From: Corallococcus exiguus
Lineage (GTDB): Bacteria; Myxococcota; Myxococcia; Myxococcales; Myxococcaceae
Assembly: GCF_017302975.1 (NCBI RefSeq)
Contig: NZ_JAFIMT010000003.1
Strand: one strand, 5' to 3'
Length of the DNA: 64,000 nucleotides
The notes beneath the pieces are model-generated. The model saw only the letters and a program-made list of their open reading frames with translations. It searched no databases and was not told where the DNA came from. The translations under genes were made by a program, and so were the position numbers. Positions within the stretch are counted from its first letter, which is position 1; each line of letters opens with the position of its first letter. Below are positions 54,677 through 64,000 of this stretch, piece by piece.

Positions 54677-54810
54677 GCGCCCGCGACGCATTCGTCAAGC
54701 CCTTTGAGACATTCCAACGCTCTCGCGCGCATGTGTCACTTCGCCGAACAGCACGCTTGCCAATCGCGCGGAGGCCGAGTTTTCGGCCTCGGGGAGGACC
54801 CCCTTTACAG

Positions 54811-57639
54811 ATGCGGATCGCTGCCCACAATGGCGCGCCTCAACTGTTCGCGCGCACGCGCGCACGCTCCAAACCGGACGGGAGGCGGGACTTGGCGGAG
54901 GTCGCGAGGGGTTTGAAGCTGGAAGTGGAAGCAGACGCCGCGGCCATCGCGGCCCGTGCCGCGGAGGAGCTGGTGGAGGCGGGGCTGACGCCCTTCCACG
55001 AGCGGCTCCTCGCCGAGGAGTTGCTCGCGCGCAGCGGTGACACGCAGCAGCGGCTGGCGAACGCGCTGGCCGAAGCGAAGGTGGACCTCAACCCGCATCA
55101 GGTCGAAGCGGCGATGTTCGCGCTGGACGCGCTGTCGCGCGGCGGCTGCATGCTCGCGGACGAGGTGGGCCTGGGGAAGACCATCGAGGCGGGCCTCGTC
55201 ATCGCCCAGCTCATGGCGGAGGGAAAGAACCGCATCCTCATCCTCGCCCCCGCCGTGCTGCGCGCGCAGTGGAACGCTGAATTGCGCGAGAAGTTCGACC
55301 TGGACAGCGTCCTCGTCGACGGCCGCGACGTGAAGAAGCACAACAACTGCTTCGATCAGCCCTTCCCCGTCATCTGCTCGCACCCGTTCGCGGCGAACCG
55401 CTCTCCGCTCGTGTCGGAGATTCCGTGGGACCTGATCATCATCGATGAGGCCCACCGGCTCCGGAACGCGCACCGGCCCAACAACAAGACGGGACAGGCG
55501 CTGCGCGCGTCGCTCGCGGGCCGCCCCAAGCTGCTGCTCACCGCCACCCCGCTCCAGAACGACCTGATGGAGCTGTTCGGCCTGATGTCGCTCCTGGACG
55601 AGCAGATTTTGGGCCCCGAGCACGCCTTCCGCAGCCGCTACCGCGCCGACGAGGGCGGCGGCATGACGGAGGCCGCCGCTTGCGAACTCAAGGAGCGGCT
55701 GGCCCCCGTGGTGCAACGCACGCTGCGCCGTCAGGTGCGCGAATACGTCCGCTACACCAACCGCCGCAGCATCGTGGAGGACTTCCTCCCCTCCCCCGAG
55801 GAGCACGACCTCTACGAGAAGGTCAGTGAGTACCTGCAGCGCTCGGAGGCCGCGGCCATCGAGCCGGGCAAGAAGACGCTCCTGACGCTGTGCTACCGCA
55901 AGCTGCTGGCCTCCTCCACGTTCGCCATCGCGCCCACGCTGCGCCGGCTGTCGGAGAACCTGGAGAAGCGCCTGGCGGCCGCGCGGCTGGGACAGCAGGC
56001 CCTGGCGCTCTTCGAGCCGGAAGAGGCCAAGCAGTTCATGGAGGAAGGCGAGGAGTGGTCCGACGACCCCGCCAAGGCACCCCAGGTCCGCACGCTGGAG
56101 CAGGAGGTGTGGGAGCTGCGTCAGTACGCGGACCTCGCGGACTCCATCCGCATCAACGCCAAGGGTGAGGCGCTCAAGCGCGCCCTGGACCGCACCTTCG
56201 CGGTGATGCGCACGCACTCCTGGCCGGAGAAGGCGCTCATCTTCACGGAGTCCAAGCGCACGCAGCAGTACCTCTTCAGGCTGCTGTCGGAGCACGGCTA
56301 CAAGGACAAGATTTCACTCCTGTCCGGCGACGCTGGCGGCACACCCGAGGAGCGCAGGGCGCTGGTGGAGGAGTTCCGCCACAAGACGCAGATCCTCATC
56401 TGCACCGAAGCGGGCGCGGAAGGCCTCAACCTCCAGTTCTGCAACCTGGTGGTGAACTACGACCTGCCGTGGAACCCGCAGCGCGTGGAGCAGCGCATCG
56501 GCCGGTGCCACCGTTACGGCCAGCAGCGCGACGTGCTGGTGGTGAACTTCCTCAACCGGCAGAACGCGGCGGACGCACGCCTGTTCGAGCTGCTGGAGAA
56601 GAAGCTCAACCTCTTCGACGGCGTGTTCGGCGCGTCGGACGAAATCCTGGGCGCGCTGGAGAGCGGCGTCGACTTCGAGCGGCGCGTGCTGGACATCTAC
56701 CAGTCCTGCCGCAACCCGGCGGACATCAACGTCGCCTTCGACAAGCTGCGCGAGGAGCTGGAAGGCAGCATCACCCAGCGCATGACGTCGATGCGCTCCG
56801 TGGTGCTGGAGCGCTTCGACGGCGACGTGCGCCGCCGGCTGCGCGTGGCGGGAGACGCCACCAAGGAGGTCGTGGCCAAGCGCCAGCAGGAGGCGAGGGC
56901 GCTCACCGGCTCCGTGCTGGGCAGCCGCACCTCCGGACGGCTCCAGGTGGCCAAGGCCGCCTACGCGGTGCGCGACCGCACCCAGGACACCGTCAGCTAC
57001 CTGCAGCTGGACGCGGCGGGCCTGCCCTCACGGCTGGCGCGGCTGGCCGGCAGCGAGGGCTGGTGGTTCGTCTACAAGTTCGAGACGACGGGCCTCAAGC
57101 CAGAGGAGAAGCTGGTCCACCTGGTGCTGGTGAAGGACCGGGACGGCGGCTTCCGCGCCCTGCCGCTGACGGACGGCGTCCACTTCACGAAGCTCGACGC
57201 CAAGGAAGAGAAGCGCCGTCAGCCCGCGCCGGTGTCGGTCCAGCTCATGCAAGAGCAGTCGCTCATGACCGCCAAGGATGAGCTGATTCGGGCCGCGGAA
57301 CGGCGCAACGCGTTGGAGCTGGACAAGGCCAAGGAGCGCGCGGACCGCTACGTCGAGGACTGCCTGATGGAGTCCCGCGAGGTGGTGGAGTCCGCCCGTC
57401 AGGCGTGGTTCGACGCGCGCAAGGAAGTCTCCGGCATCGAGGACGTCGCGGAGCGCGCGAAGGCCCGGGCTCACTCGGACCGGCAGGAGCGCGACTACCG
57501 CCGCAAGCTGGCGTCGCTGCGCAACGAGGAGGAGAAGCGCTACGCCTCCAAGGACCGGCAGATGGCGGAGCTGGCCAACAAGGCGCGCGTGACGGAGAAG
57601 CGCACCCTCATCGCGTCCGCGTACTTCTGGCTGTCCTGA
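54811..57639 (+). CDS. SNF2-family helicase (RapA/HepA-like)
   Basis: Its helicase motifs are ADEVGLGKT (I), DEAHRLRN (II), and motifs V/VI TEAGAEGLNLQ...QRIGRCHRYGQ. There is a GGGGAGGA RBS 10 nt upstream of ATG 54811. Confidence 0.85.
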   Translation: MRIAAHNGAPQLFARTRARSKPDGRRDLAEVARGLKLEVEADAAAIAARAAEELVEAGLTPFHERLLAEELLARSGDTQQRLANALAEAKVDLNPHQVEAAMFALDALSRGGCMLADEVGLGKTIEAGLVIAQLMAEGKNRILILAPAVLRAQWNAELREKFDLDSVLVDGRDVKKHNNCFDQPFPVICSHPFAANRSPLVSEIPWDLIIIDEAHRLRNAHRPNNKTGQALRASLAGRPKLLLTATPLQNDLMELFGLMSLLDEQILGPEHAFRSRYRADEGGGMTEAAACELKERLAPVVQRTLRRQVREYVRYTNRRSIVEDFLPSPEEHDLYEKVSEYLQRSEAAAIEPGKKTLLTLCYRKLLASSTFAIAPTLRRLSENLEKRLAAARLGQQALALFEPEEAKQFMEEGEEWSDDPAKAPQVRTLEQEVWELRQYADLADSIRINAKGEALKRALDRTFAVMRTHSWPEKALIFTESKRTQQYLFRLLSEHGYKDKISLLSGDAGGTPEERRALVEEFRHKTQILICTEAGAEGLNLQFCNLVVNYDLPWNPQRVEQRIGRCHRYGQQRDVLVVNFLNRQNAADARLFELLEKKLNLFDGVFGASDEILGALESGVDFERRVLDIYQSCRNPADINVAFDKLREELEGSITQRMTSMRSVVLERFDGDVRRRLRVAGDATKEVVAKRQQEARALTGSVLGSRTSGRLQVAKAAYAVRDRTQDTVSYLQLDAAGLPSRLARLAGSEGWWFVYKFETTGLKPEEKLVHLVLVKDRDGGFRALPLTDGVHFTKLDAKEEKRRQPAPVSVQLMQEQSLMTAKDELIRAAERRNALELDKAKERADRYVEDCLMESREVVESARQAWFDARKEVSGIEDVAERAKARAHSDRQERDYRRKLASLRNEEEKRYASKDRQMAELANKARVTEKRTLIASAYFWLS

Positions 57640-57645
57640 GCCCCG

Positions 57646-57984
57646 TCACAGGGGCTTGAGCCGCACCCACGTCGCGCCCCAGCCTCCGTCCGCTTCGGAG
57701 GCTGTCTGGAAGCCATCCACTTCCGGCAGCGTGGGCAGCAGGGACTGCACGGTGCGCCTCAGCGCGCCCGTCCCCTTGCCGTGGATGATGCGCACGTCGA
57801 GCACACCCTTCTGGCGGCAGGCCCAGAGGTACTCGGTGACGAGGTCCTTCACGTCGCGAGGCTGGAAGAGATGCAGGTCGAGGTTTCCATCGACCGGAAT
57901 TTCTACCGCTCCCAACTCATCGGGCGTGGGCGGCGGCTCCGGACCCTCCGGAGGCAGGGGCGGGAGTGGCTTTCGGCGTGACAC
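57646..57984 (-). CDS. Smr-domain protein
   Basis: It has the Smr signature LDLH...VLDVRIIHGKGTGALRRTVQSLL. The N-terminal part overlaps a small upstream ORF, so the true start may lie further downstream. Confidence 0.7.
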   Translation of the reverse strand: MSRRKPLPPLPPEGPEPPPTPDELGAVEIPVDGNLDLHLFQPRDVKDLVTEYLWACRQKGVLDVRIIHGKGTGALRRTVQSLLPTLPEVDGFQTASEADGGWGATWVRLKPL

Positions 57985-58234
57985 CGTAGCGTGCCTCCTC
58001 CTGGCGCTGCTTCTCCTCGGCCGCCAGACGCTGACGCTCGCGCGCCAGCCGGAACTCTTCCTTGAGGCTGGTGATCTCCCCCTTGAGCGAGTTGATGTCC
58101 TCCTTCACCGCTCGCGGGTGGCTTTCGCCAGCCGGGTCCTGATGGTTGCCCGCACGCTTGCCCTCCGAGCCGGCTCCACCGGAGGCGGTCATCTGCATCA
58201 ACAGCGCGGCCAGGGTCATCACCATCATGAGCAT
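57917..58234 (-). CDS. Small putative secreted coiled-coil protein
   Basis: It has a hydrophobic N-terminus (MLMMVMTLAALLMQMTA) then a charged coiled coil (KEDINSLKGEITSLKEEFRLARERQRLAAEEKQRQ). Its last 68 nt overlap the Smr ORF. Confidence 0.35.
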   Translation of the reverse strand: MLMMVMTLAALLMQMTASGGAGSEGKRAGNHQDPAGESHPRAVKEDINSLKGEITSLKEEFRLARERQRLAAEEKQRQEEARYGVTPKATPAPASGGSGAAAHAR

Positions 58235-58266
58235 TCACGTAAGCAAGCGCCGTGCTCGCGCGCAAG

Positions 58267-59325
58267 TCATGTTGCGTGAACGGCGCCTCTCTGGCCGCCC
58301 TCCTCCTTGTGTGACACGACGCGTTCGGCGAGCCGGACGGCGGACAGCGGGGCGCTCCCTTCCGCCTTGTTGTTGATGGTCACGAAGACGGGACGCTCGC
58401 GTCGCACCGCCGCCATGCACACGCGCGCCAGCACGTCGCGGGTGCCCACGTCCTCGTCCACCAGCCGGTTGAAGGGCGCATAGCGGGCGTAGGCCTCCTC
58501 GTAGCCGAGGTTCGGCGGCAGCATCCATCGCACCACCACGGCGCGGGCCTCGAATGCGCGCGTGAGCTTCGCCTGCCGCGCGACGGGCGGCATGTGGGCC
58601 CACACCGCGAGCACCGGGCTCACGCCCGTGTCCGCGAGCGCCTGCGCGAAGCCCTCCGTGAGCAGCTCCTCGTTGCGAACCTCCACCGCGTACAGCGGCC
58701 CCCGGGGCAACGCGGAGAAGAACGCGTGCAGCCGCTCCACGAAGCGGCCCGCGCCCCCCAGCGCCGCGGGGTCCTGCGGCGGGAACTGGAAGACGAGCGG
58801 CCCGGCCTTGTCGCCCAGACCCTCCATGAACGGCGCCACCACGTGGTCCACGGCGTAGGCCGCCTGGAGGAAGCGCTCGTTCACCTGCCCCCGGTTCGCG
58901 CCATAGCGATCGTGCACGGGGAAGCGCGCCAACGTGCAGGCCTCGTGGGCCTTCACCAGGAAGCGGAAGCCGTCCGGCACCTGCTGGGCATACTCAGCGA
59001 AGGTCGCGGCCGGCACCGGCGCGTAGAACGTCCGGTCGATGCCGACCGTGCGCAGCACCGGGTGGTGCGCGTAGGCGGCCAGGCCCTCGCGCGCCAGCTG
59101 GGTCGTACTGGCCTCATGGTCGTAGACGAGCCCGTTCCAACCCGGGAAGGTCCATGACGACGTGCCCAGGTAGACGCCGCGCGGGAGCTGCTCGCCCAAC
59201 ATGCGCAGGCTGTCGGACGGCTCGGCGGGCCCCACCGGCTGGGTCCTGCGCCGCGACGACGCGGGGGCTTCCTCCACCGCGCCGGTGAAGAGGTCGAACT
59301 GCGCGGGTCGTCGCGGTGCGCTCAT
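58267..59325 (-). CDS. DUF72-family protein
   Basis: It has the YLGTSSWTFPGW motif and the length and composition of DUF72 (TIM-barrel-like) proteins. Confidence 0.8.
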   Translation of the reverse strand: MSAPRRPAQFDLFTGAVEEAPASSRRRTQPVGPAEPSDSLRMLGEQLPRGVYLGTSSWTFPGWNGLVYDHEASTTQLAREGLAAYAHHPVLRTVGIDRTFYAPVPAATFAEYAQQVPDGFRFLVKAHEACTLARFPVHDRYGANRGQVNERFLQAAYAVDHVVAPFMEGLGDKAGPLVFQFPPQDPAALGGAGRFVERLHAFFSALPRGPLYAVEVRNEELLTEGFAQALADTGVSPVLAVWAHMPPVARQAKLTRAFEARAVVVRWMLPPNLGYEEAYARYAPFNRLVDEDVGTRDVLARVCMAAVRRERPVFVTINNKAEGSAPLSAVRLAERVVSHKEEGGQRGAVHAT

Positions 59326-59497
59326 GCGTGCAGCTCCTCTCCCACGTTGGGGCGGCGGGGGAACCCTGGGAGTAATCCCCGAGCCCAGACGATGCAGCAG
59401 GTTGCCCGGATTCTACGAGACGTTCCAGGTTTCCGGCACGCCCCCCAGGCGGACGGGCACGCACGGACAGTCCTCTTTCAACCACCACGGTATGTGA

Positions 59498-59513
59498 TTG
59501 GACCTTTGTCCAA
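59498..59513. promoter_or_regulatory. Palindromic operator-like site TTGGACCTTTGTCCAA upstream of the PAS-LuxR gene
   Basis: Perfect 6-bp inverted half-sites TTGGAC/GTCCAA flank a 4-nt T-rich spacer. It lies in an AT-richer intergenic region about 100 bp upstream of ATG 59611. A near-identical site occurs at 60681. Confidence 0.5.
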
Positions 59514-59610
59514 ATGCAAACGCAGTCGACTCGCTGTAAGCTATTTAAACCAAGAAATTCAGCATTACTCCTGTAAAGCTTGGACTGGATTGCAACGGCC
59601 GGGGGGCCTC

Positions 59611-60534
59611 ATGGACTGGTCGTTGACCGCATCGCTGCTCGCGGAGCGGGACACGCGGCCCATCGTCGTGATGGACCGGCGCGGCCGCATCGAGCTGGCG
59701 AACGGCGCGTTCACGTCGTTGCTGGGCCGACCCCGTGAGGAGTTGTTGGGGCGCCGCTGGACGGATGTCTGCACGCCACGCGAGCACGGACGCGAGGTGG
59801 GACAGGCGCTGCGAGCCATCTTCAGCAGCGCGGAGACGCGGCTGGAGACGGAGGTGCTCACGCGCGATGGCGAGCGGCTGTCGGTGGAACTGGACGTGGC
59901 CGCGGTGGGCCGCCCTCCCCTGCGCCTGGTGGCCATCATCACCCGCTCCGCCCCGCCCCTCTCCGTCCCCGAGCGCAACGTCGTCCCGGAGCCGATCCAG
60001 GCCCGCGGAGCACACCGGGACATGAGCTACGAAATCTCCACCGAGCTGTCGTCGTTCGGGACGCTCAAGGCGGTGTGGACGTCCGGGGAGGCGCGGCAGG
60101 AGGAGATGGTGGGCCGGCCGTGCTTCGGCGCCTTCGCCGACCGCGACGCGCCCTGTCTGGACTGTCCGCTGACGATGGCGGCGCCTGCCTCGTGGCCGCA
60201 CACCATCGTGAGGCAGGCCTCCGAGCATGCGGAGGGCTACGAGGTCGTCACCGCCACACCCACGGGCGCTGGCACCGCGCGTGTCAGCGTTCACACCATT
60301 GGAGATGAAACACTCAGCGGCCTCTTCGAAGCGAAGGTGCGGCGCATGGCGAACGCCGCGCGGCTGTCCGAGCGGGAAGGCGATGTGTTGCGATATCTCG
60401 CGCTCGGCCGCTCACCGACCGACATTTCGACCGTGTTAGGAATTACCGAGCGCACGGTTAAATTCCACCAGGCCAACCTTCTCCGGAAGCTGGGCGCGGA
60501 GACGCGATACGACCTGCTCCGCCTGTTCTTCTGA
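59611..60534 (+). CDS. LuxR/GerE-family transcriptional regulator with an N-terminal PAS-like sensor and a Cys-rich segment
   Basis: It has a C-terminal HTH EREGDVLRYLALGRSPTDISTVLGITERTVKFHQANLLRKLG and an N-terminal PAS-like region IVVMDRRGRIELANGAFTSLLGR...; it also has CFGAFADRDAPCLDCP. Confidence 0.75.
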   Translation: MDWSLTASLLAERDTRPIVVMDRRGRIELANGAFTSLLGRPREELLGRRWTDVCTPREHGREVGQALRAIFSSAETRLETEVLTRDGERLSVELDVAAVGRPPLRLVAIITRSAPPLSVPERNVVPEPIQARGAHRDMSYEISTELSSFGTLKAVWTSGEARQEEMVGRPCFGAFADRDAPCLDCPLTMAAPASWPHTIVRQASEHAEGYEVVTATPTGAGTARVSVHTIGDETLSGLFEAKVRRMANAARLSEREGDVLRYLALGRSPTDISTVLGITERTVKFHQANLLRKLGAETRYDLLRLFF

Positions 60535-60680
60535 TCAGGGCGCCTTCCCTCTGGGACAGCTTTCACGCCGTTGACTTTGGAGGATGCTGGGCTTTCGACT
60601 CCGGAGTCTTGTGGGTCGGGGGGGCCGTTGCCCATGGGCAGCGCCAGTCAATTCCGTCTCATCAAACACATACAGTCTGT

Positions 60681-60696
60681 TTGGACTTTTGTCCAA
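60681..60696. promoter_or_regulatory. Palindromic operator-like site TTGGACTTTTGTCCAA upstream of cheA
   Basis: It has the same half-sites and 4-nt spacing as the site at 59498, and lies about 45 bp upstream of the cheA ATG at 60740. Confidence 0.5.
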
Positions 60697-60739
60697 GGGC
60701 GTCCTGTCCGTGAGTGAAACTCCGGGCTGGGACGACGTG

Positions 60740-62878
60740 ATGCGGGAGTTCCTCCTCGAGTCTCGCGAGCACGTGCAGAGCATCGAGGCGACGGTGCTGG
60801 AGCTGGAGGCGCAGCCGGGCTCGCAGCCGTTGCTGGCGCAGCTGTTCCGGGCCCTGCACACCGTGAAGGGCACCTGCGGCTTCCTGGGCTTCAGCCGCCT
60901 GGAGGCGCTGATGCACGCCGCCGAGGAGATGCTCGGCCTGGCGCGCGACCGGCGTCTGGTGCTGGACCGCGAGCGCGTGTCCACGCTGCTGGCGGCGGCG
61001 GACGCGGCGCGCGGGACGCTGGAGCACATCGAGGCGACGGGCCTGGAGCCCGCGGTGGACCACTCCGCGCTGCTCGCTCGCATGGCGGGCGCGGCGGCGG
61101 GCTCCGCGCCGCTGGAGGTGTCCGAGCCGCTGACGCCTCCGGGCGCCGTGCCCTGGCGCGGCGCCGCGACCGGGGTGGACTCCAAGCTGCGCGTGGACGT
61201 GGCGCTGTTGGACCGGTTGATGAACCTGATGGGCGAGCTGGTGCTGGCGCGCAACCGCATCCTCCAGTGCGCGGCCTCGCCCACGCCGGGCGCGGACCTG
61301 CTCACCGCGTCGCAGCGGTTGGACGTCGTCACCACGCAGGTGCAGCAGGTGGTGATGAAGACGCGGCTCCAGCCGGTGGGCCAGGTGTGGAACCGCTTCC
61401 CCCGGCTGGTGCGCGAGCTGGCGCACGGGTGCGGCAAGCAGGTGCGTCTGCAATTGCAGGGCGCGGACACGGAGCTGGACAAGACCCTGGTGGAAGCACT
61501 GCATGATCCGCTCACCCACCTCTTGCGCAACGCCGTGGACCACGGCGTGGAGACGCCCGAGCAGCGTATGGCCGCGGGCAAGCCGCCCGTCGGGTGCCTG
61601 ACGCTGAGCGCGTCGCATGAGGGCGGGCTCGTGCACCTGGGCATGTCCGATGACGGCGCGGGCATCGACGTGCAGCGTGTGCGGCAGGTCGCGGTGCAAC
61701 GGGGACTGCTCACGGCCGACCAGGCGGCGCGGATGCCGGACGCGGACGCGCTGATGCTCATCTTCATGGCGGGCTTCAGCACCGCGGAGCGCGTCACGTC
61801 GCTGTCCGGCCGGGGCGTGGGCATGGACGTGGTGCGCTCGCAGGTGGAGCGCATTGGCGGCACCGTGGAGGTGCACAGCCGGCCCGGACAGGGCACGACG
61901 TTCACCCTGAAGATTCCCCTCACGCTGGCCATCATCCCGGCGCTGCTCGTCACCTGCCGGGGGGACCGCTACGCGCTGCCGCAGGCCTCCCTGCGGGAGG
62001 TGGTGTTCCTGGAGCCGGCCCAGGCGCGCAGGGACATCACCCGCATCCAGGGCGCGTGCGTCCTGCGGCTGCGCGGGGAGCTGCTCCCGCTGGTGGTGCT
62101 CGCCGCCGAGCTGGGCGTGGGGCCGGCGATGCCGGACCTGGACGAGGGCGCCACCGTCGTCGTGCTGCAGGCCGGTGAGCGCACCTTCGGGCTGTGGGTG
62201 GACGCCATCCACGACACGGAAGAGATTGTCGTCAAGCCGCTGTGGAAGCACCTCAAGGGGCTGGCCTGCTACGCGGGGGCGACGGTGCTGGGCGACGGGC
62301 GCGTGGCGCTCATCCTGGACGCCATGGGCCTGGGCCGCCGCGCGGGCATGGTCACCGAGGCGCAGGCCCAGGTCGTCATTCCGGAGGCCGCTCCGGATGC
62401 ATCGGCGCCGGAGGAGCCACGCGAACGGGTGCTGCTGTGCCGCAACGGCGCGGAGGGCCGCGTGGCCATCCCGCTGTCGCACGTGGCCCGGCTGGAGGAG
62501 CTGCCCGCGTCGGACATCGAGCGGCTGAGCGGAGGCATGGAGATGGCGCGCTACCACGGGCAGCTGCTGCCGCTGGTGCGCGTGGCGTCCGTGCTGGAGG
62601 CGAGGCCCGGCGCGACCGAGCGGATGGCGCAACACATCCAGGTCGCCCTGGGCGAGTCGCTGTCCGTCGTCGTCACCCAGCACGCGGACACGCGCGTGGG
62701 GCTGGTGGTGGACGCCATCCTCGACGTCGCGGAGGTGGAGCTCGCGCTCCAGTGGGAGACGCGCCGCCCGGGCGTGCTCGGCTCCATGGTGGTGCAGTCC
62801 CGGGCCACCGAGTTCCTGGACGTGGAGGGCACCGTGCGCGCCGTGCACCCGGAGCTGCTGACAGGCGGTGCGCCATGA
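60740..62878 (+). CDS. cheA: Chemotaxis histidine kinase CheA with two C-terminal CheW-like domains
   Basis: It has an Hpt domain (FRALHTVKGTCGFLGF), a dimerisation domain, HATPase (HLLRNAVDHGVE...GRGVGMDVV...GQGTTF) and two CheW-like domains at the C-terminus. An alternative GTG start at 60710 is possible. Confidence 0.85.
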   Translation: MREFLLESREHVQSIEATVLELEAQPGSQPLLAQLFRALHTVKGTCGFLGFSRLEALMHAAEEMLGLARDRRLVLDRERVSTLLAAADAARGTLEHIEATGLEPAVDHSALLARMAGAAAGSAPLEVSEPLTPPGAVPWRGAATGVDSKLRVDVALLDRLMNLMGELVLARNRILQCAASPTPGADLLTASQRLDVVTTQVQQVVMKTRLQPVGQVWNRFPRLVRELAHGCGKQVRLQLQGADTELDKTLVEALHDPLTHLLRNAVDHGVETPEQRMAAGKPPVGCLTLSASHEGGLVHLGMSDDGAGIDVQRVRQVAVQRGLLTADQAARMPDADALMLIFMAGFSTAERVTSLSGRGVGMDVVRSQVERIGGTVEVHSRPGQGTTFTLKIPLTLAIIPALLVTCRGDRYALPQASLREVVFLEPAQARRDITRIQGACVLRLRGELLPLVVLAAELGVGPAMPDLDEGATVVVLQAGERTFGLWVDAIHDTEEIVVKPLWKHLKGLACYAGATVLGDGRVALILDAMGLGRRAGMVTEAQAQVVIPEAAPDASAPEEPRERVLLCRNGAEGRVAIPLSHVARLEELPASDIERLSGGMEMARYHGQLLPLVRVASVLEARPGATERMAQHIQVALGESLSVVVTQHADTRVGLVVDAILDVAEVELALQWETRRPGVLGSMVVQSRATEFLDVEGTVRAVHPELLTGGAP

Positions 62879-63363
62879 GCGGCTTCCGCCAGATGTGCTC
62901 GTTCCAGGTGGGCGACCACCTGTTCGGTCTGGACATCGAACGCGTGCAGGAGATTTTGCTCCCACCCCCGCTCACGCGCGTCCCCGGCGCGCCTCCGGAA
63001 GTGGCGGGGCTGCTCAACCTGCGCGGGCAGATCGTCCCCGCCATCGACCTGCGCCGCCGTCTGGAATTGCCCGAAGGCACCGCCCCCGCGGACGCGCCCC
63101 ACGTCGTCCTGCGCGGCGACGAGGGCGCGGTGAGCCTTCGCGTGGATGCCATTGGCGACATCCTCCCCTTCGAGCAGTCGGACCTGGCGCCGCTGCCGGA
63201 CAACCTGCGCGGGCCGCTGCGCCCGTTCCTGCTGGGTGTCCACGCGCTGCCGGACCGGCTGCTGCTCGTGTTGTCCGCGGACGCGGTGGTGGACGGGCTC
63301 TCGCCCGCGTCCAGCGCTTCCGCCTCCCCTTCCTTCCCCGTGCTTCCCCAGGAGTCCCGCTGA
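62875..63363 (+). CDS. cheW: Chemotaxis coupling protein CheW
   Basis: It has a CheW fold (FQVGDHLFGLDIERVQEIL...GLLNLRGQIVPAIDLR). Its ATG overlaps the cheA stop (ATGA). Confidence 0.85.
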   Translation: MSGFRQMCSFQVGDHLFGLDIERVQEILLPPPLTRVPGAPPEVAGLLNLRGQIVPAIDLRRRLELPEGTAPADAPHVVLRGDEGAVSLRVDAIGDILPFEQSDLAPLPDNLRGPLRPFLLGVHALPDRLLLVLSADAVVDGLSPASSASASPSFPVLPQESR

Positions 63364-64000
63364 TGGCCCGCCCGACCGCGCCCGCCGTGAAAACCACCCT
63401 CTTCCAGCGCCTGGGCGGCAAGGCCCCCCTGACGGCCGCCGTGCAGAAGCTCTACGCGCGGGTGATGACGGACGCGCTGCTCAAGCCCTACTTCCGCCGC
63501 GCGGACATGATCCAGCTTCAGCGCCAGATGGTCGCGTTCCTCACCCAGCACCTGGGCGGGCCGGCCGTCTACAAGGGCCCGTCCATGCGCGACGTGCACG
63601 CGCGCATGGAGCTCAAGCCCCATCACTTCGGGCGCGTCGCCGAGCACCTGGCCACCGTGCTGGATGAGTTGGACGTGCCGGGCTCCGTCGCCCGCGAGCT
63701 GCTGGCCGCCGTGGGCACGTTGCAGGAGGACATCGTGAGCAGGCCCGCGGCGAAGGCCTCCTCCCGGACCGCCGCCGTGAAGCGCGCTCCGGCGCGTGCA
63801 TCCCGGACGGAGGGACGCCGGGTCGCCACGGCGTCCGCGCCCGCGGCCCGGTCCTCGCGCCGCCGCGCGCCCACGCCGCTCGAAGGCGCCCTGAGCGAGG
63901 CGGTGCTGGACGCGGCGAGCGTCAACCTGTTCATCCTGGACGCGGACCTGGCCATCGTCTTCTCGAACGCGTCCTCGTCGGAGGCCATCGAGCGCATCAG
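63363..64000 (+). CDS. Protein with a truncated-hemoglobin (2/2 globin) N-terminal domain; runs off the window end, so the C-terminus is missing
   Basis: The sequence TLFQRLGGKAPLTAAVQKLYARVMTDALLKPYF...QRQMVAFLTQHLGGPAVYKGPSMRDVHARMELKPHHF matches the trHb group I/II fold. It continues into an Arg/Ala-rich linker and a further domain beyond the window. It is not in the ORF track because there is no stop. Confidence 0.7.
   Translation, partial: MARPTAPAVKTTLFQRLGGKAPLTAAVQKLYARVMTDALLKPYFRRADMIQLQRQMVAFLTQHLGGPAVYKGPSMRDVHARMELKPHHFGRVAEHLATVLDELDVPGSVARELLAAVGTLQEDIVSRPAAKASSRTAAVKRAPARASRTEGRRVATASAPAARSSRRRAPTPLEGALSEAVLDAASVNLFILDADLAIVFSNASSSEAIERI

Follow-up and report, generated by a model that had tools for sequence, protein, structure and literature searches.

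Lux boxes are known from activator positions next to the -35 element, and the quorum-sensing LuxR systems typically feed back positively on one of their own genes. Here, we have compared these and other described systems with a locus of Corallococcus exiguus, located in a window of 64,000 nucleotides (i.e. the whole stretch of DNA that was analysed), where two 16-bp dyads of the form TTGGAC-N4-GTCCAA, referred to as Box A and Box D, occur next to the gene of a PAS-LuxR regulator and to a chemosensory (che) operon. The reading that we favour, with moderate confidence, is that both dyads are lux-box-type operators of the adjacent regulator, through which it would control its own gene and the che operon.

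Three sets of published results are relevant to this comparison. The first is concerned with CviR, the ideal site of which is quoted as the 16-bp palindrome CTGNCCNNNNGGNCAG (Stauff and Bassler, cited in PMC12114271 and PMC10847564). The second is concerned with regulators that combine a PAS domain with a LuxR-type helix-turn-helix (HTH), a pairing that is described as very common (bioRxiv 10.64898/2026.03.15.711900; PMC4235431): PimM and CfaR of Streptomyces bind a 16-bp palindrome and activate transcription, the palindrome of CfaR being located immediately upstream of the -35 element and that of PimM overlapping it, and the homodimerisation of CfaR needs the PAS domain (PMC4380410, PMC9774167). 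The third is the in silico description of Cc-5, a putative aerotaxis cluster of Corallococcus coralloides (Sharma, Parales and Singer 2018, PMC6194562), reported there from only one of 34 myxobacterial genomes; the portions of that paper that were covered by a term search contain no mention of an upstream PAS-LuxR gene, a promoter or an operator of Cc-5.

The TTGGAC dyads around the regulator gene

The initial annotation of the locus had claimed two near-identical 16-bp dyads, and both are present where it had placed them: Box A is TTGGACCTTTGTCCAA (TTGGAC-CTTT-GTCCAA, 59498-59513) and Box D is TTGGACTTTTGTCCAA (TTGGAC-TTTT-GTCCAA, 60681-60696), no strand being assigned to these or to the other dyads described below. 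The two boxes flank the PAS-LuxR gene (59611-60534, + strand), one on each side, in non-coding DNA that is AT-richer than the rest (45-57% GC, versus about 70% elsewhere). They are the only two exact matches to TTGGACNNNNGTCCAA, i.e. to TTGGAC-N4-GTCCAA, in the 64-kb window; in 100 dinucleotide-preserving shuffles of the window, matches averaged 0.01 and a count of two or more never occurred. There are no further copies with up to one mismatch in the window, and up to two mismatches add a single copy, TTGGACTGGATTGCAA at 59580-59595, which belongs to the same locus. The likeness of Box A and Box D ends at the dyad arms, and therefore they are not copies of a duplicated longer segment.

In nine genomes of the coralloides clade, Box A follows the pattern TTG[GA][AC][CG]-N4-GTCC[AC]A with a variable spacer, and its right arm is GTCCAA in eight of the nine and GTCCCA in C. 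interemptor. Box D follows TGGAC-N4-GTC[CA]A in the same clade, with the left-arm core TGGAC present in 9/9; it is identical in Corallococcus sp. M7, and the other species carry 1-2 mismatches in their dyads. In the terminator clade, Box D is replaced by the palindrome TGCGCG-CCTT-CGCGCA, offset by one column. The spacers of the terminator/praedator clade are without TTGGAC-type dyads at both positions. The conservation of the two dyads, as judged from these alignments, is partial and lineage-limited.

One explanation of this distribution is that the dyads have no function, either as chance palindromes in AT-rich spacers or as the product of a recent local sequence homogenisation in one lineage; it would account for perfect copies that occur only in two closely related strains, and the whole spacers are fairly conserved among close relatives, so that conservation alone is weak evidence. 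We consider this explanation very unlikely, since two copies are observed against 0.01 expected, the right arm of Box A and the TGGAC core of Box D are kept in the coralloides clade while the spacers change, and the family-wide dyad that is described in the next section has the same geometry and promoter position.

The hexamer TAAGCT (59537-59542, + strand), located 23 nt past the end of Box A, as in the distant homologues, is a putative -10 element of the regulator's promoter; four of its positions (T, A, A and the last T) do not vary among 11 aligned sequences, and these positions are kept in Corallococcus sp. M7 and also in the dyad-less clade. A putative, weak -35 element, ATGCAA (59514-59519, + strand), abuts Box A and is placed by its 17-nt spacing to the -10 element; the sequence TGCAAA is conserved at this point in the coralloides clade. 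Counted from the inferred start of transcription, the centre of Box A then falls near -43.5, against the weak -35 element, where LuxR-type activators contact RNA polymerase, and positive autoregulation is therefore predicted.

The near-dyad at 59580-59595 (TTGGAC-TGGA-TTGCAA, two mismatches) is located downstream of the inferred transcription start and ahead of the start codon; its right part, TTGCAA, is invariant genus-wide, its left arm follows TTGNNC, and the inner G of its right arm is where it departs from the family pattern. Neither the TTGGAC sites nor this near-dyad were accepted as sigma-54 elements, the GG-to-GC spacings being 16 or 10 nt and not 12.

The regulator family and its dyad in distant homologues

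The gene assignments that had been made for the locus (PAS-LuxR, cheA, cheW and globin) hold by Pfam domains. The regulator, a protein of 307 aa with Pfam PAS_4, PAS_9 and GerE domains, has been characterised here through its family alignment, an AlphaFold2 (AF2) model and Foldseek. Its C-terminal HTH matches GerE (E = 3.7e-15, residues 251-305) and is modelled as four helices at 254-306, i.e. as a HTH of the GerE/LuxR type. Its best sequence match among solved structures is CviR (E = 9e-9; ISERTVKFHVANVIRKL versus ITERTVKFHQANLLRKL), followed by QscR, SdiA, RhlR and LasR, with VraR also matched; the CviR-like recognition helix, ERTVKFHxANxxRKL, is near-identical between CviR and the regulator, and its RTVKFHQAN region is invariant or nearly so within the regulator family. 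A likeness to the DosR box (GGGAC-TWWA-GTCCC) was dropped in favour of CviR after the solved-structure search had shown a recognition helix of the quorum-sensing type. There is no Pfam Autoind_bind match in the regulator, only PAS-family and GerE domains, and it is therefore not a receptor of acyl-homoserine lactones (AHLs).

In the AF2 model (predicted local distance difference test, pLDDT, 81.7), a PAS domain at residues 1-113 is followed by a disordered linker, by a second, PAS-like alpha/beta domain at 138-230 and by the HTH; Foldseek matches the model with tandem-PAS proteins (PpsR, DosP, HIF/ARNT), heme PAS domains and EL222. The second domain contains the Cys-rich motif that the initial annotation had pointed out, and the alignment bears it out: 26 family members, with identities that go as low as about 32%, all share C171, C182 and C185 (C-x10-C-x2-C) and the prolines that flank them (PCxDCP), and the same alignment has no fourth invariant Cys or His ligand. 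A role of the motif in binding a metal or an Fe-S cluster, or as a thiol switch, would be reasonable, and a functional tie to the globin of the operon may exist.

The nearest relatives of the regulator are Corallococcus proteins (79-93% identity), and beyond the genus the identity falls to about 40% and below, in uncultured Polyangiaceae, Kofleriaceae, Archangium-like bacteria and Anaeromyxobacter. The regulator belongs to an uncharacterised family that is spread across the Myxococcota and in which a LuxR HTH is combined with one PAS domain and one PAS-like domain that bears cysteines.

Our comparison of distant members of this family has been based on 28 full-length homologues with 30-40% identity and different gene neighbourhoods. 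Upstream of them, there are no consistent matches, either exact or with one mismatch, to TTGGAC-N4-GTCCAA or to its core GGAC-N4-GTCC, and the unbiased counting of exact dyads was dropped as too strict; the family link did not emerge until any base was allowed at arm positions 1, 4 and 5. The resulting pattern, TG..C-N4-G..CA, is found 30-200 nt before the start codon in 17 of the 28, against a background of 0.03 per locus (binomial P = 2.5e-19, which possible kinship among the loci inflates and which is an upper bound on significance, the effect being large), and within 150 nt past the stop codon in 7 of 27 (P = 1.2e-5). The enrichment of k-mers in the same upstream regions leads to GGCCAGTTAG and GGACAGT, which are right arms of such dyads. 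CTGCCC-TCTC-GGCCAG is a typical example, others being CTGGCC-TCTC-GGCCAG and CTGCAC-CTAT-GGACAG, and three further, independently fetched homologue loci (L068, L070 and L071) also carry the dyad.

The 17 homologues contribute 21 upstream dyads, which agree with CTGNCCNNNNGGNCAG at the positions that had not been selected for (C1 in 19/21, C5 in 14/21, G12 in 17/21 and G16 in 20/21), while the two N positions of the family consensus, CTGNCC-N4-GGNCAG, vary freely among them. The flanks of the distant dyads differ, i.e. the dyads are islands of conservation. A hexamer TAnnnT (e.g. TATCGT, TATGGT, TAATGT, TATGAT) is located 19-24 nt past the end of the dyad in 9 of 19 distant upstream dyads, at 23-24 nt in eight of these. 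All 21 dyads, as well as Box A, Box D and the two boxes introduced below as Box B and Box C, are 16-bp inverted repeats with 6-bp arms and a 4-bp spacer.

We read these dyads as probable operators of the regulator, to which it would bind and through which it would regulate its own gene, because the regulator gene alone is common to the unrelated loci and its class of HTH binds such sites; because a dyad of the same geometry is located upstream of distant members in unrelated contexts; because Box A shares with the distant dyads the spacing to the -10 element; and because the HTH most resembles that of CviR, for which a 16-bp palindromic site of this form has been published.

Additional observations were made at the distant loci, where the neighbours have been read from the contigs with Pfam annotation, gene calling based on the GC content of third codon positions being too noisy in high-GC DNA. 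Signalling genes predominate among the neighbours (response regulators, HisKA kinases and, at one locus, a Protoglobin-STAS partner-switching module), and che genes next to members of the regulator family have not been found outside Corallococcus. Locus L068 carries one dyad before the regulator and another before the next gene, which encodes a response-regulator protein. The partner-switching set, with Protoglobin-STAS, STAS, anti-sigma-kinase and SpoIIE genes, is located at L070 6296-8879, and single-domain response regulators are located at L068 5985-6887 and L071 4887-5210; with the Protoglobin gene, there are therefore two unrelated contexts in which members of the family have a globin-type sensor nearby. 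In Anaeromyxobacter dehalogenans (L069 3700-3870), two tandem regulator paralogues are preceded by 3-4 direct repeats CCCAGAG[TC]CGTT and by no dyad, which suggests a different cis-element in this lineage. A metagenome scan for TTGGACYTYTGTCCAA returned at least 120 contigs, which are unrelated, with no LuxR or CheA homologue among the matches listed.

Candidate operators upstream of the che operon

The first gene of the che operon, cheA (60710-62878, + strand, 722 aa; Pfam Hpt, H-kinase_dim, HATPase_c and CheW), is followed by cheW (62875-63363, + strand, 162 aa; Pfam CheW) and by the 5' part of a globin-PAS-MCP (methyl-accepting chemotaxis protein) gene (63363-64000, + strand; Pfam Bac_globin), which continues past the end of the window and whose full orthologue has 696 aa, with Bac_globin, PAS and MCPsignal domains. 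The full operon, as seen in Corallococcus sp. M7, comprises CheA, CheW, Bac_globin-PAS-MCP, ABC1, ABM, CheB and CheR; the spacer between its globin-MCP and ABC1 genes (L067 15843-16096), outside the window, is occupied by a tandem repeat with a unit of about 110 nt, in two full copies and a partial third.

Box D had been placed about 45 bp upstream of cheA, which is correct when counted from the ATG at 60740; the likely start is instead the GTG at 60710, only 14 nt past the dyad. This GTG is the start called in Corallococcus sp. M7, the nearest relative, and the four variable sites between it and the ATG fall mostly at third codon positions, which favours the GTG. Box D is thus located 29 to 14 nt before the start codon, where it abuts an AAGGG ribosome-binding site. 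From an additional ATG, at 60584, an open reading frame of 764 aa would run uninterrupted into cheA; the stretch 60584-60710 is argued to be leader and not coding, by a 1-nt insertion in C. exercitus SDU142 and by conservation that is not codon-like.

A scoring matrix made from the dyads of the distant homologues alone was run over the approximately 64,000 positions of the window. Five of the top 15 matches fall inside this 1.3-kb locus: the first rank is taken by position 60523 and the fifth by 60544, which we refer to as Box B and Box C, and the two TTGGAC dyads are joint fourteenth. Box B (CTGTTC-TTCT-GATCAG, 60523-60538) overlaps the stop codon of the regulator and is present in 10 of 12 Corallococcus genomes, its left arm being coding sequence, which partly explains its conservation. 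Box C (CTTCCC-TCTG-GGACAG, 60544-60559) is the best box of the CviR type and is probably the main cheA operator. It agrees with 9/10 consensus positions, with one mismatch to CTGNCCNNNNGGNCAG, and Box B with 8/10, mismatch counts as such not being discriminating at 70% GC (up to two mismatches to CTGNCCNNNNGGNCAG give 49 matches, against 101 expected). The arms of Box C are kept in all 11 Corallococcus genomes in which the regulator and che genes are linked, its spacer changes (TCTG, TCCG, CGCG, CGCA), and it is lost in C. interemptor, from which the che genes are deleted; in this alignment, fixed arms with a free spacer are the classic signature of a protein site. The two boxes are 21 bp apart, centre to centre. 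Next to them, Box D is probably not the main che operator, Box B and especially Box C fitting the family consensus better and being conserved in the genus.

Downstream of Box C by 23 nt, the spacing also seen at Box A and in the family, a putative -10-like hexamer (60583-60588, + strand) reads GATGCT or CATGCT, ATGCT being conserved in all che-linked genomes; with it, the cheA promoter would be driven mainly via Box C, possibly together with Box B, 21 bp further upstream. Control of the che operon by the regulator is plausible given the dyad that precedes the next gene at locus L068 and given the conservation of Boxes B and C. What had been proposed initially, that the regulator binds the dyads, autoregulates and controls the che operon, agrees in its core with the comparative sequence evidence and was incomplete as to the che operators: overall the comparison bears it out in part, strongly as regards autoregulation and reasonably well as regards the che operon.

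Past the -10-like hexamer, a block of about 55 nt (60595-60650) is identical in all 11 che-linked Corallococcus genomes and exceeds the flanking coding DNA in conservation. It has no second copy in the window and no match in Rfam, offers no variation from which an RNA structure could be judged, and holds two perfect 12-bp palindromes, GACTCCGGAGTC (60597-60608) and TGCCCATGGGCA (60629-60640); it weakly recalls a sigma-54 -24/-12 element, GG-N10-GC with TTGC, the rest of the -24 element being missing.

With Boxes B and C as the probable activating sites, Box D would be an extra operator, which might repress, as a roadblock or by looping to Boxes B and C, or tune expression. Its centre is 137 bp from that of Box C and 158 bp from that of Box B, near whole helical turns, and a loop between them is speculation. 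Box D would be located inside the leader if transcription started near 60595 or read through from the regulator gene. We hold with low confidence that it is an auxiliary DNA operator and probably repressive.

The same position is also compatible with a function in RNA, where Box D would form a hairpin (UUGGAC-UUUU-GUCCAA) in the cheA leader that affects translation or mRNA stability, its identity with Box A being partly coincidental. Both the minimum-energy fold and the centroid fold of the leader contain the hairpin; the terminator clade carries, in almost the same position upstream of the start codon, the GC-rich palindrome TGCGCG-CCTT-CGCGCA; and no terminator has been found between the regulator gene and cheA, so that Box D is probably transcribed. 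However, the fold has a z-score of only -1.6, RNAalifold does not select the hairpin (covariation term -0.7 kcal/mol), and 71% of cells pair, the outer three pairs failing in most species and being present only in this lineage; the palindrome of the terminator clade is offset by one column, and therefore there is no true covariation. In addition, there is no Rfam match, a permissive threshold giving one spurious microRNA match inside a coding region, and all 12 arm bases are the same as in Box A, 1.2 kb away and upstream of its own -10 element, a coincidence with a chance of about 3e-5 in a spacer of about 500 nt. We therefore consider the hairpin improbable.

Eleven of 12 Corallococcus genomes share the gene order Smr, DUF72, PAS-LuxR, CheA, CheW, globin. 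The exception is C. interemptor, where Cc-5 has been cleanly deleted (L005 4921-5010, compared with L067 10938-19843 in Corallococcus sp. M7) and all that remains of it is 63 nt of cheA together with the 3' end of cheR. This species has kept the PAS-LuxR gene with Box A upstream of it and represents a natural che-minus control. Upstream of the regulator, the genes at 54733-59325 encode a SNF2-family helicase (968 aa), a Smr-domain protein and a DUF72 protein transcribed divergently from the regulator; they are syntenic in all of the Corallococcus genomes and show no dyad.

It is unlikely, in our judgement, that the TTGGAC dyads are bound by another dimeric factor, of the CRP/FNR type or otherwise responsive to oxygen or redox state, with the PAS-LuxR regulator using only Boxes B and C. 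Such a factor would suit an aerotaxis operon, the TTGGAC arms are off the family and CviR consensus at 4/10 positions where Boxes B and C fit much better, and the terminator clade retains the regulator and not the TTGGAC dyads. The FNR/FixK-type box is TTGAT-N4-ATCAA, a 14-bp dyad with 8 nt between TTG and CAA. The outer TTG...CAA of the dyads recalls these boxes; however, TTG and CAA are here 10 nt apart instead of 8, which is the geometry of a lux box and not that of an FNR-type box. Box A, moreover, holds the exact position of the family dyad, 23 nt before the -10 element and upstream of the regulator's own gene, and the matrix scan found no better family-type box in the spacer upstream of the regulator; no other copy occurs in the 64 kb, although a global regulator would predict some; and C. 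interemptor, having lost the che cluster, has kept the regulator with Box A.

Several observations weigh against our preferred reading, i.e. that the TTGGAC dyads are operators of the PAS-LuxR regulator, in addition to the possible kinship of the distant loci. Boxes A and D match only 6/10 CviR-type positions, with T in place of C at position 1, A in place of C at 5 and the symmetric changes at 12 and 16; these positions are outside the loose filter, and therefore the assignment of the two boxes to the family rests on geometry and position and not on their full sequence. Eleven of the 28 distant homologues, Anaeromyxobacter among them, are without the dyad; perfect TTGGAC/GTCCAA arms at both sites occur only in this strain and in Corallococcus sp. 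M7; and the terminator/praedator/MAG (metagenome-assembled genome) clade has the same recognition helix, yet no TTGGAC-type dyad at either position. All of the promoter positions are inferred, and a consensus scan for sigma-70 promoters and terminators called nothing in 59300-60800, a miss of TAAGCT being expected where the -35 element is poor. Lastly, Box D has no -10-like hexamer at the activator spacing, which a class II model does not explain, and it therefore cannot work as Box A does.

Taken together, the mechanism that we propose is one where a regulator dimer would bind 16-bp inverted repeats of the 6-N4-6 form, at Box A for its own gene and at the boxes before cheA for the operon. If correct, it would be the first testable regulatory model for Cc-5, a cluster so far known from gene content alone, and it names one regulator, four candidate operators and two candidate promoters. 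The motif CTGNCC-N4-GGNCAG, derived from comparative genomics alone, would permit the prediction of regulons in the Myxococcota, and a DNA-binding head of the quorum-sensing LuxR type would here be used with a non-AHL sensor. The mechanism as such, i.e. a dimeric LuxR-type protein on an inverted repeat by the -35 element, with autoregulation, is textbook, and the advance is incremental and not conceptual.

A more far-reaching reading, which is tentative and rather unlikely, is that the regulator senses oxygen or redox state, with C-x10-C-x2-C serving as an Fe-S, metal or thiol switch, and gates a globin-based aerotaxis system, the horizontal acquisition of which is suggested by one published analysis. 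Under the same tentative reading, Cc-5 might have been captured by insertion downstream of an autoregulated lux-box promoter that was already in place and that, in other Myxococcota, drives a neighbouring signalling gene; the activating pair near -43.5 and -64.5, together with the high-symmetry box at the ribosome-binding site, could give a dose-dependent, on-then-off response; and the family might represent undescribed myxobacterial LuxR "solos", with a quorum-sensing-type DNA-binding head on a redox-sensing body.

Comparison with described systems

The che operon of the present locus is the same cluster as Cc-5 of PMC6194562: CheA, CheW, MCP with globin and PAS, ABC1, ABM, CheB and CheR, with no CheY. 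The difference is in its distribution, the cluster being present in 11 of the 12 Corallococcus genomes examined here and in one of the 34 myxobacterial genomes of that paper.

Among the actinobacterial regulators of the PimM, CfaR, PteF and AmphRIV type, the architecture is similar, i.e. an N-terminal PAS domain with a C-terminal LuxR HTH. Their operator is CTVGGGAWWTCCCBAG, however, in contrast with CTGNCC-N4-GGNCAG or TTGGAC-N4-GTCCAA here; they have a single PAS and no domain with the three Cys, where the present regulator has an additional Cys-bearing PAS-like domain, and they belong to antibiotic gene clusters. No Streptomyces PAS-LuxR protein of the PimM type occurs among 110 sequence homologues of the regulator, which is therefore assigned to a separate family with a convergent or shared architecture. 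By operator, sequence relatedness and the extra domain, as compared here, the regulator is not a member of the PimM family.

EL222 (LOV-HTH), the PAS4-LuxR solos of Photorhabdus and the heme protein FG214 share with the regulator a PAS-type sensor that controls the dimerisation and DNA binding of a LuxR-type HTH, and EL222 is matched in both sequence and fold searches. The present regulator differs from this group in its second PAS-like domain with C-x10-C-x2-C and in an operator that is defined by comparative genomics alone.

The closest HTH is that of CviR, within the group of CviR, LuxR, LasR, RhlR and SdiA, and the family dyad consensus corresponds to the CviR site, CTGNCCNNNNGGNCAG; the likeness to the quorum-sensing systems would extend to the position of Box A beside the putative -35 element, as placed by the -10 spacing. 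The differences from these systems are in the sensor, which consists here of two PAS-type domains, the second with three invariant Cys, with no autoinducer-binding domain, and in the target, which would be a chemosensory operon and not an AHL synthase or virulence genes. As far as the sequence comparisons allow, the regulator looks functionally like a LuxR-type class II activator acting on a lux-box palindrome, and architecturally like the PAS-LuxR one-component regulators.

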